This document shows, piece by piece, positions 7,592-8,023 of a DNA stretch of 64,000 nt. The notes below the pieces were generated by a model. That model was not told the origin of the DNA. It saw nothing but the letters and a program-made list of their open reading frames with translations, and searched no databases. The DNA is from Haplodiscus bocki (lineage: Eukaryota): contig OZ296653.1 of assembly GCA_965655095.1 (NCBI GenBank), forward strand, positions 36,394,001-36,458,000. The letters run 5' to 3'. Made by a program: the position numbers and the translations under genes. Numbering within the stretch: position 1 is the stretch's first letter; the number at the start of each line of letters is the position of its first letter.

Positions 7592-8023
7592 ATCATCTAT
7601 GGAACAGAAGACTCAATTCTCCAACAACCTAATTCAATTGGACATTGCATATCCGCGGACGCCCGAATGAGTAAAGGTTTTGCTGATTTTCTTTCCCACC
7701 GAATCCCTGGTCTCAGATCAACATGCCGAAAAGCAAAGTTTTTCATGGGACAAGTCTTCCCCTTTTGGGACTCAACAGGAAAACGTTATGTCTACAACTT
7801 GGTGACTAAGGAAAGATATTGCGATAAACCAAATCTATCAACGCTGTCTAAGACACTAGAAGCAATGAAGATTCATGCGAGTACAAATGGTGTCTCTTCT
7901 ATTGCAATACCCAAACTTGGTTGTGGCCTAGATCAAATTAATTGGCAAGAGGTTGTAAAGCTACTCCGAGATGTCTTCACCTATGCTGACGTACAAATTG
8001 TAGTCTACACTCTCGAAGAAAAT
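7592..8023 (+). CDS. TARG1/OARD1 (Poa1p-like) macrodomain embedded in Pol between protease and RT
   Basis: SIGHCISADARMSKGFA...YVYNLVTKERYCDKP...LEAMKIH...IAIPKLGCGLDQINWQEV...IVVYTL parallels recalled OARD1 motifs (LAHCISEDCRMGAGIA, YLITK, MPRIGCGLDRLQW, ITVYTL); catalytic Lys (VTK) and Asp (GLD) are present. Confidence 0.9.

Follow-up and report, generated by a model that had tools for sequence, protein, structure and literature searches.

Introduction

Macrodomains are known from viral polyproteins and from fish endogenous retroviruses (ERVs); we have not found the TARG1 class reported at the Pol position described here. The closest described relative is human TARG1 (OARD1, C6orf130; ALC1-like class, structures 4j5q, 4j5r and 4j5s), whose catalytic dyad is Lys84/Asp125 according to 10.64898/2026.03.31.715305, among other sources. 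The literature (including PMC8195603, PMC9411070, PMC7050489 and PMC5087735) lists ADP-ribose on Glu and Asp, on nucleic-acid ends and on thymidine as TARG1 substrates, and the preprint 10.64898/2026.03.31.715305 adds the removal of uracil-N3 and guanine-N1 ADP-ribose from RNA. TARG1 is presented there as the only animal hydrolase so far reported to take ADP-ribose off the bases of DNA and RNA, and when and why animal cells make these marks is left open. The domain analysed here lies in a 64,000-nucleotide stretch of Haplodiscus bocki DNA (the window). It shares with TARG1 the fold, the HC-S-D motif, the TK motif with the Lys84 equivalent and the GCGLD loop with the Asp125 equivalent. Unlike TARG1, it is embedded in a retroelement polyprotein, has lost the Asp of the GD[LI]F motif, carries Phe in the Ile44 column and is non-basic in the K50 and R126 columns.

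Other described systems are more distant. The DarG macrodomain of DarTG belongs to the same class, adopts the same fold (Foldseek E 2e-10, TM 0.86) and has the catalytic Lys in common with the window domain, but it lacks the Lys/Asp dyad according to the literature, is 20-22% identical, and works with a DarT partner that is absent from the element. The coronavirus and alphavirus nsP3 macrodomains (MacroD) are likewise polyprotein-embedded and are described as ADP-ribose hydrolases that counter antiviral PARPs; they differ from the window domain in class and mechanism. Among retro-transcribing elements, ORFs with a macro domain are occasionally present in epsilon-like ERVs of teleosts (Basta et al. 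2009, cited in PMC4977317). These resemble the present case in having captured a macrodomain, although they are Retroviridae with the macrodomain as an additional ORF by that description, and the element here is Ty3/gypsy with the domain inside Pol. By gene content (gag, a PR-RT-RH-IN pol, an env-like gene and LTRs), the element matches the env-carrying Ty3/gypsy errantiviruses of Chary and Hayashi (PMC13524379). The main text of that study contains none of the terms macro, ADP-ribo and MATH; in its supplement, the four listed of ten matches to "macro" are species names, and "OARD" does not occur. Our search for a TARG1-type domain in a gypsy Pol covered the open literature and found no report; subscription journals and Repbase lay outside its scope, and an earlier mention may exist there.

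Results

A TARG1-type macrodomain in the Pol frame

The domain occupies 432 bases of the forward strand, encoding 144 aa in the Pol frame. Its features are as follows.

7592..8023 (+): TARG1/OARD1-type macrodomain (Pfam, phmmer, AlphaFold model, Foldseek)
7601..7621 (+): altered N-terminal motif, GD[LI]F in cellular homologues (alignment columns)
7808..7810 (+): Lys equivalent to the nucleophile Lys84 of TARG1 (alignment to 4j5q)
7931..7933 (+): Asp equivalent to Asp125 of TARG1 (alignment to 4j5q)

The window domain is of the TARG1/OARD1 type, not the MacroD type. Pfam Macro matches it with E 2.5e-5, at 24.6 bits against a cut-off of 22. Searched against solved structures with phmmer, residues 12-141 match human OARD1/TARG1 at E 5.9e-27, about twenty orders above every other solved family (the next at 1.5e-6). 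An AlphaFold model built with 91 sequences is confident (pLDDT 95.0, pTM 0.90), and Foldseek comparison of this model with the PDB places TARG1 chains at all of ranks 1-8 (TM 0.85-0.87), followed by DarG; identity to TARG1 in the fold comparison is 36%. An earlier note, made from the letters of the window, had named a TARG1/OARD1-type macrodomain at this position. Both the OARD1 match and the eight best fold matches bear this out, and the profile search, which could have spoken against any macrodomain, agrees with the fold. The same note had called the domain full: its fold is complete, and its N-terminal GD[LI]F motif is altered.

Two other identities were considered and set aside. DarG is disfavoured by a score of 53 bits against a cut-off of 250 for NF048014, by the presence of the Lys/Asp dyad and by the lack of a DarT partner. 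Viral MacroD-type folds appear at rank 27 or lower with 14-18% identity, and no MacroD-type protein is among the sequence matches. The domain is likely under-annotated, because Pfam overlooks it when a whole Pol is scanned: Pfam Macro was absent from whole-Pol scans of the family proteins P0002 and P0141 (E 0.001).

Place in Pol and damage in the window copy

The macrodomain shares its reading frame with the protease on its 5' side and with the reverse transcriptase (RT), RNase H and integrase on its 3' side.

6668..12208 (+): pol frame with protease, unassigned segment, macrodomain, RT, RNase H, spacer and integrase (ORFs, Pfam)
6803..7072 (+): aspartyl protease (PF13650 E 2.6e-5, PF13975 E 2.5e-5)
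7076..7588 (+): conserved segment between protease and macrodomain (72-77% identity between subfamilies)
8342..9697 (+): RT and RNase H (PF00078, PF17919, PF17917)
10571..11746 (+): integrase (PF17921, PF00665, PF22938, PF24626)

The placement between protease and RT given in the earlier note is right as to order and frame, but domain and protease are not adjacent, with ~170 aa in between. A further ~105 aa lie between the macrodomain and the RT core, and the integrase begins ~850 aa downstream of the domain in this lineage.

The copy in the window, one of a high-copy family, is dead, its reading frame interrupted by stops. In-frame pol stops stand at 7190, 7589, 8024 and 9491, and 7592-8023 spans exactly one in-frame stop to the next; with stops at both ends of the domain, the window copy cannot make it as part of Pol. 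Over 1827 aa, the window pol is 94% identical to that of the stop-free relative P0002. In two DNA runs of one study, which may derive from the source sample, >99% of the depth differs from the window at three stop positions (a check on 40 rows, covering three of the four pol stops), and the three are therefore private to the window copy.

The segment at 7076-7588 resembles nothing described in the collections searched: the best PDB match has E 0.56, Pfam gives no match at E 5, and the best Atlas match (0.88) is unnamed. Its model is not confident (pLDDT 33.8). A dUTPase-like origin, an idea suggested by a motif, finds no support in these values. Profile comparisons of this region with two other macrodomain-bearing Pols, P0323 and P0296, aligned the macrodomain only. 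Candidate protease sites flanking the macrodomain, picked by eye, were also discarded, as the C-side motif is absent in the sister P0163.

The surrounding Ty3/gypsy element

The host element of the domain is a Ty3/gypsy LTR element of ~19 kb with an env-like gene.

2027..3791 (+): left long direct repeat, LTR-like (98.8% identical to 19573-21343)
5241..6710 (+): gag ORF (Retrotrans_gag E 1.9e-6; 489 aa stop to stop)
6698..6790 (+): candidate -1 frameshift signal, GTTAAAC and a downstream stem-loop, at the gag/pol overlap
15316..17375 (+): env-like fusion glycoprotein gene, in pieces (PF24664 Monjiviricetes_fusion, E 7.6e-12 and 1.4e-13 for two pieces)
18986..19630 (+): TRAF-type MATH domain gene, in pieces (PF21355 E 4e-11; TRAF5 E 1.5e-7)
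19573..21343 (+): right long direct repeat, abutting an assembly gap (N, 21344-21543)

Assignment to Ty3/gypsy follows from the domain order PR-RT-RH-IN and from the RT being closest to that of Ty3, its best solved relative (E 1.7e-30; other retroelement RTs reach 1e-19 to 1e-20 and 1e-12). The two long repeats differ by 15 mismatches and one gap in 1771 columns (98.8%), and each contains a 59-60 nt tandem array. Exact repeat ends and a target-site duplication could not be fixed because the N gap cuts the right repeat. The near-identity of the repeats (15/1771) stands against a pol that has diverged by ~6% in protein from its stop-free relative and carries four stops; the window copy may have carried its damage before it was mobilised, or its repeats may have been homogenised. 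A TGG-initial stretch at 4486-4499, upstream of gag, looks by eye like a primer-binding site.

Pol lies in the -1 frame relative to gag, with the heptamer GTTAAAC at the overlap. The sequence at 6705-6790 folds at -18.5 kcal/mol (z -3.16), and one of 200 shuffles folds as well. GTTAAAC serves as a slippery sequence in an arterivirus. It is a candidate slippery heptamer here. The env-like gene is found downstream of pol and inside the LTRs, with stops and a frame change in the window copy. In the interval between pol and env, at 13195-15092 (+), ORFs of 127-178 aa gave no Pfam match at E 0.01 and are possible accessory genes. The TRAF-type MATH gene sits just 5' of the right repeat and extends into it; it may be a captured immune-signalling adaptor. 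Upstream of the MATH domain, 18114-19124 (+) contains a stretch that by eye resembles a coiled coil of the kind found in TRAF C-termini.

The domain is present throughout the family and conserved at TARG1 positions

A domain search among the longer proteins gave 375 matches from 507 candidates, 120 of which are listed; cluster sizes are 617 members for P0002, 854 for P0006 and 498 for P0004. Among 122 listed macrodomain-bearing proteins, the upstream Pol segment is present in 114, the downstream segment in 108, both in 100, and neither in 0. Conversely, no protein with both Pol flanks lacks the macrodomain, in a set that is enriched for the domain. All nine stop-free family Pol ORFs of at least 1700 aa carry it. 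About 14,000 contigs per run fall on 2.8 kb of pol (two DNA runs, one study); no RNA data set was listed as containing the sequence. Contig joints that remove the domain alone were not seen among the 15 listed of 136, a result that we do not count as evidence. Viral-contig scans returned no relatives (0 of 6 stretches with the domain, 0 of 3 with RT), and the metagenome scan returned one short locus from 317 stretches.

Overall, the macrodomain is no more conserved than its immediate flanks. Between subfamilies, its identity is 73-75%, compared with 69-81% for the flanks, 85-99% for RT/RNase H, 48-66% for the spacer between RNase H and integrase and 59% for the tail. Variation within subfamilies is 0.035 for the macrodomain, 0.015 for RT and 0.030-0.033 for the flanks. 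Deep sisters at 43-49% identity (six rows from three lineages), found among 50%-representatives and assigned to the element by shared flanks or by the tree, share the window residue at 20-27 of 24-31 TARG1-conserved positions; the corresponding figure for variable positions is only 11-16 of 42-51 (p 2e-7 to 6e-6). An excess at conserved positions (p < 0.01) is seen in 12 of the 24 element rows, and the remaining 12 look like decayed copies; Lys is lost in 3 of the 24. Taken from these alignments, the pattern points to a macrodomain kept under purifying selection as the lineage split into families.

The catalytic dyad is retained and the adenine end of the pocket is altered

Lys73 of the window domain aligns with residue 78 of the 4j5q chain and Asp114 with residue 119; their spacing of 41 equals that of Lys84 and Asp125 in TARG1. 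Among the matches listed, Lys is kept in 128/138 copies, Asp in 132/138 and both in 123/138. The stop-free Pol ORFs of 1700+ aa keep Asp in 9/9 and Lys in 8/9. Retention of the catalytic Lys and Asp, as read from the window in the earlier note, thus extends from this copy to 123 of 138, with no family-wide loss. The HC-S-D motif after strand 2 is equally stable in the copies that cover it (H 128/133, C 130/133, S 131/134, D 130/134), and the window matches 25 of the 31 positions conserved in 66 non-element homologues, four of the six differences being hydrophobic swaps.

The N-terminal part of the pocket departs from this picture. The GD[LI]F motif is found in 0/19 element rows versus 56/65 non-element homologues, and its Asp column holds Ser or Thr in element rows where 65/66 non-element rows have D or N. 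The Ile44 column is Phe in 24/24 element rows versus 1/66 non-element rows. This Asp, Asp20 of TARG1, presumably holds the adenine like the corresponding Asp of viral MacroD domains. In the SARS-CoV-2 macrodomain (MacroD), the Asp that holds the adenine amine tolerates Asn, and a change to Val impairs activity (PMC7729036). The columns of TARG1 K50, R86 and R126, residues tied to RNA activity in the preprint 10.64898/2026.03.31.715305, hold His, Arg and Gln in the window; these columns vary among non-element homologues too, and the net charge of the window domain is +7 against a median of +6. As the pocket changes are fixed across element families, they suggest a pocket retuned at its adenine end rather than decayed. 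The lost Asp, the Ile-to-Phe change and the K50 and R126 columns lower our confidence in ordinary TARG1 activity.

TARG1-type domains at another position in distant gypsy Pols

Four further gypsy Pols (P0269, P0322, P0323 and P0296) also have a TARG1-type domain with an intact dyad fused in Pol. They differ from the window family in carrying it after the integrase (in tandem in P0322), in keeping GDLF or MDLF, and in an RT-RNase H that is 27-32% identical to that of the window family (P0296 and P0269 are 43% identical to each other). In a quick tree of 129 domains, the 24 element rows form one clade (SH-aLRT 95) with no resolved sister. The AU test does not reject a single origin for the domains of the element and those at the C-terminus of the other Pols (p 0.388; 37 rows thinned from the 129). 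Separate captures or relocation are favoured by the different position in Pol and the distant RT, which suggests that gypsy Pols have recurrently captured TARG1 domains or that the domain has relocated.

TARG1-type domain fusions were also seen in P0211, P0213, P0223, P0235, P0246 and P0299, some of which may be assembly chimeras. The partners across this set are DNA ligase III-like (ligase, BRCT), TatD with Ulp1, NADAR, and cytidylyltransferase with zf-PARP. Four points had escaped the earlier note: the stop codons, the remodelling at the adenine side of the pocket, the possibility that the RNA genome is a substrate, and the presence of the same domain type at another Pol position in other gypsy lineages.

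Discussion

We propose that an ancestor of this env-carrying Ty3/gypsy lineage took up a TARG1/OARD1-type macrodomain in frame, at a site after the protease region and before RT. Translation would yield the domain as a part of Gag-Pol, probably through -1 frameshifting, since pol overlaps gag in the -1 frame. Ty3/gypsy biology suggests that it would then enter the particle together with RT and integrase. By extension from TARG1, the Lys/Asp dyad most likely removes ADP-ribose via a covalent lysyl intermediate, and the target would be host ADP-ribosylation on bases or ends of the RNA genome or cDNA, or on acidic side chains of the element's proteins. The reading we prefer, with about even chances of being correct, is an ADP-ribose eraser that travels in the particle and works on element RNA, cDNA or proteins. 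Protection from host PARPs, the role put forward in the earlier note, is a reasonable conjecture. The TRAF-type gene is a second host-signalling cargo of the element.

Several other functions were weighed against this one. The motif change in all element families examined (GD[LI]F in 0/19, Phe in 24/24) and the altered basic surface (H, R and Q in the K50, R86 and R126 columns) would suit a reader or re-specified binder, in which hydrolysis is weak or the ligand has shifted and the domain serves to anchor Pol, or the integration complex, on chromatin bearing ADP-ribose or on another nucleotide derivative. A pure reader, however, needs neither the nucleophile Lys nor the Asp125 equivalent, both of which are kept across families, and targeting domains are usually found on integrase and not, as here, between protease and RT; we consider such a binder unlikely. 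Somewhat less probable again is an eraser that serves host repair, clearing PARP1-type marks or PAR at cDNA ends and the integration site and thereby aiding integration or gap repair. TARG1 is described as a partner of PARP1 that can release PAR chains whole and that works on the ends of nucleic acids, and the domain adjoins integrase in the other gypsy Pols, but in this lineage it lies far upstream of integrase.

The conservation data also bear on the idea that the domain is a passenger, a folded in-frame spacer needed for Pol processing whose enzyme function is irrelevant. Domain conservation no higher than that of the flanks and well below that of RT is what such a spacer would show, as is drift in the N-terminal motif. 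Against it, deep-sister conservation is concentrated in the active site, with its surface-exposed dyad, and at TARG1-conserved positions, no both-flank protein lacks the domain in the domain-enriched set, and the domain recurs in other gypsy lineages; we judge the passenger reading improbable. Least probable is a metabolite hydrolase that rids the particle's surroundings of O-acyl-ADP-ribose or comparable small molecules. OARD1 does hydrolyse O-acyl-ADP-ribose according to the literature, but no benefit to the element is evident and the host presumably has its own enzyme.

Returning to the particle-borne eraser, a more specific form can be put forward, though we consider it unlikely: animal hosts would restrict retroelements by ADP-ribosylating nucleic-acid bases, and TARG1 would have been captured repeatedly at different Pol positions and packaged as an eraser of uracil, guanine or thymidine ADP-ribosylation on the RNA genome and cDNA of the element, as a counterpart of DarG versus DarT. 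If true, invertebrate animals would have a defence that works by ADP-ribosylation of nucleic acids, and this lineage, with its env and TRAF genes, would be a virus-like element armed with two antagonists of host defence. More broadly, a TARG1 domain kept under selection in this Pol, and found elsewhere in unrelated gypsy Pols, suggests that ADP-ribosylation has physiological targets among the nucleic acids or proteins of retroelements. Viral macrodomains, so far a theme of MacroD-type enzymes, would thereby gain another class. The isolated 144-aa domain is easily assayed, and its function is thus directly testable.

Other features of the window

Outside the element, a piece of a host Ser/Thr kinase exon, which we take to be NEK-like, is present at 44264-44707 (-). 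The regions 41017-42771, 50780-52959 and 57219-58090 contain long inverted repeats and, by eye, remnants of decayed ORFs of retroelement type and of Tc1/mariner-like transposases.
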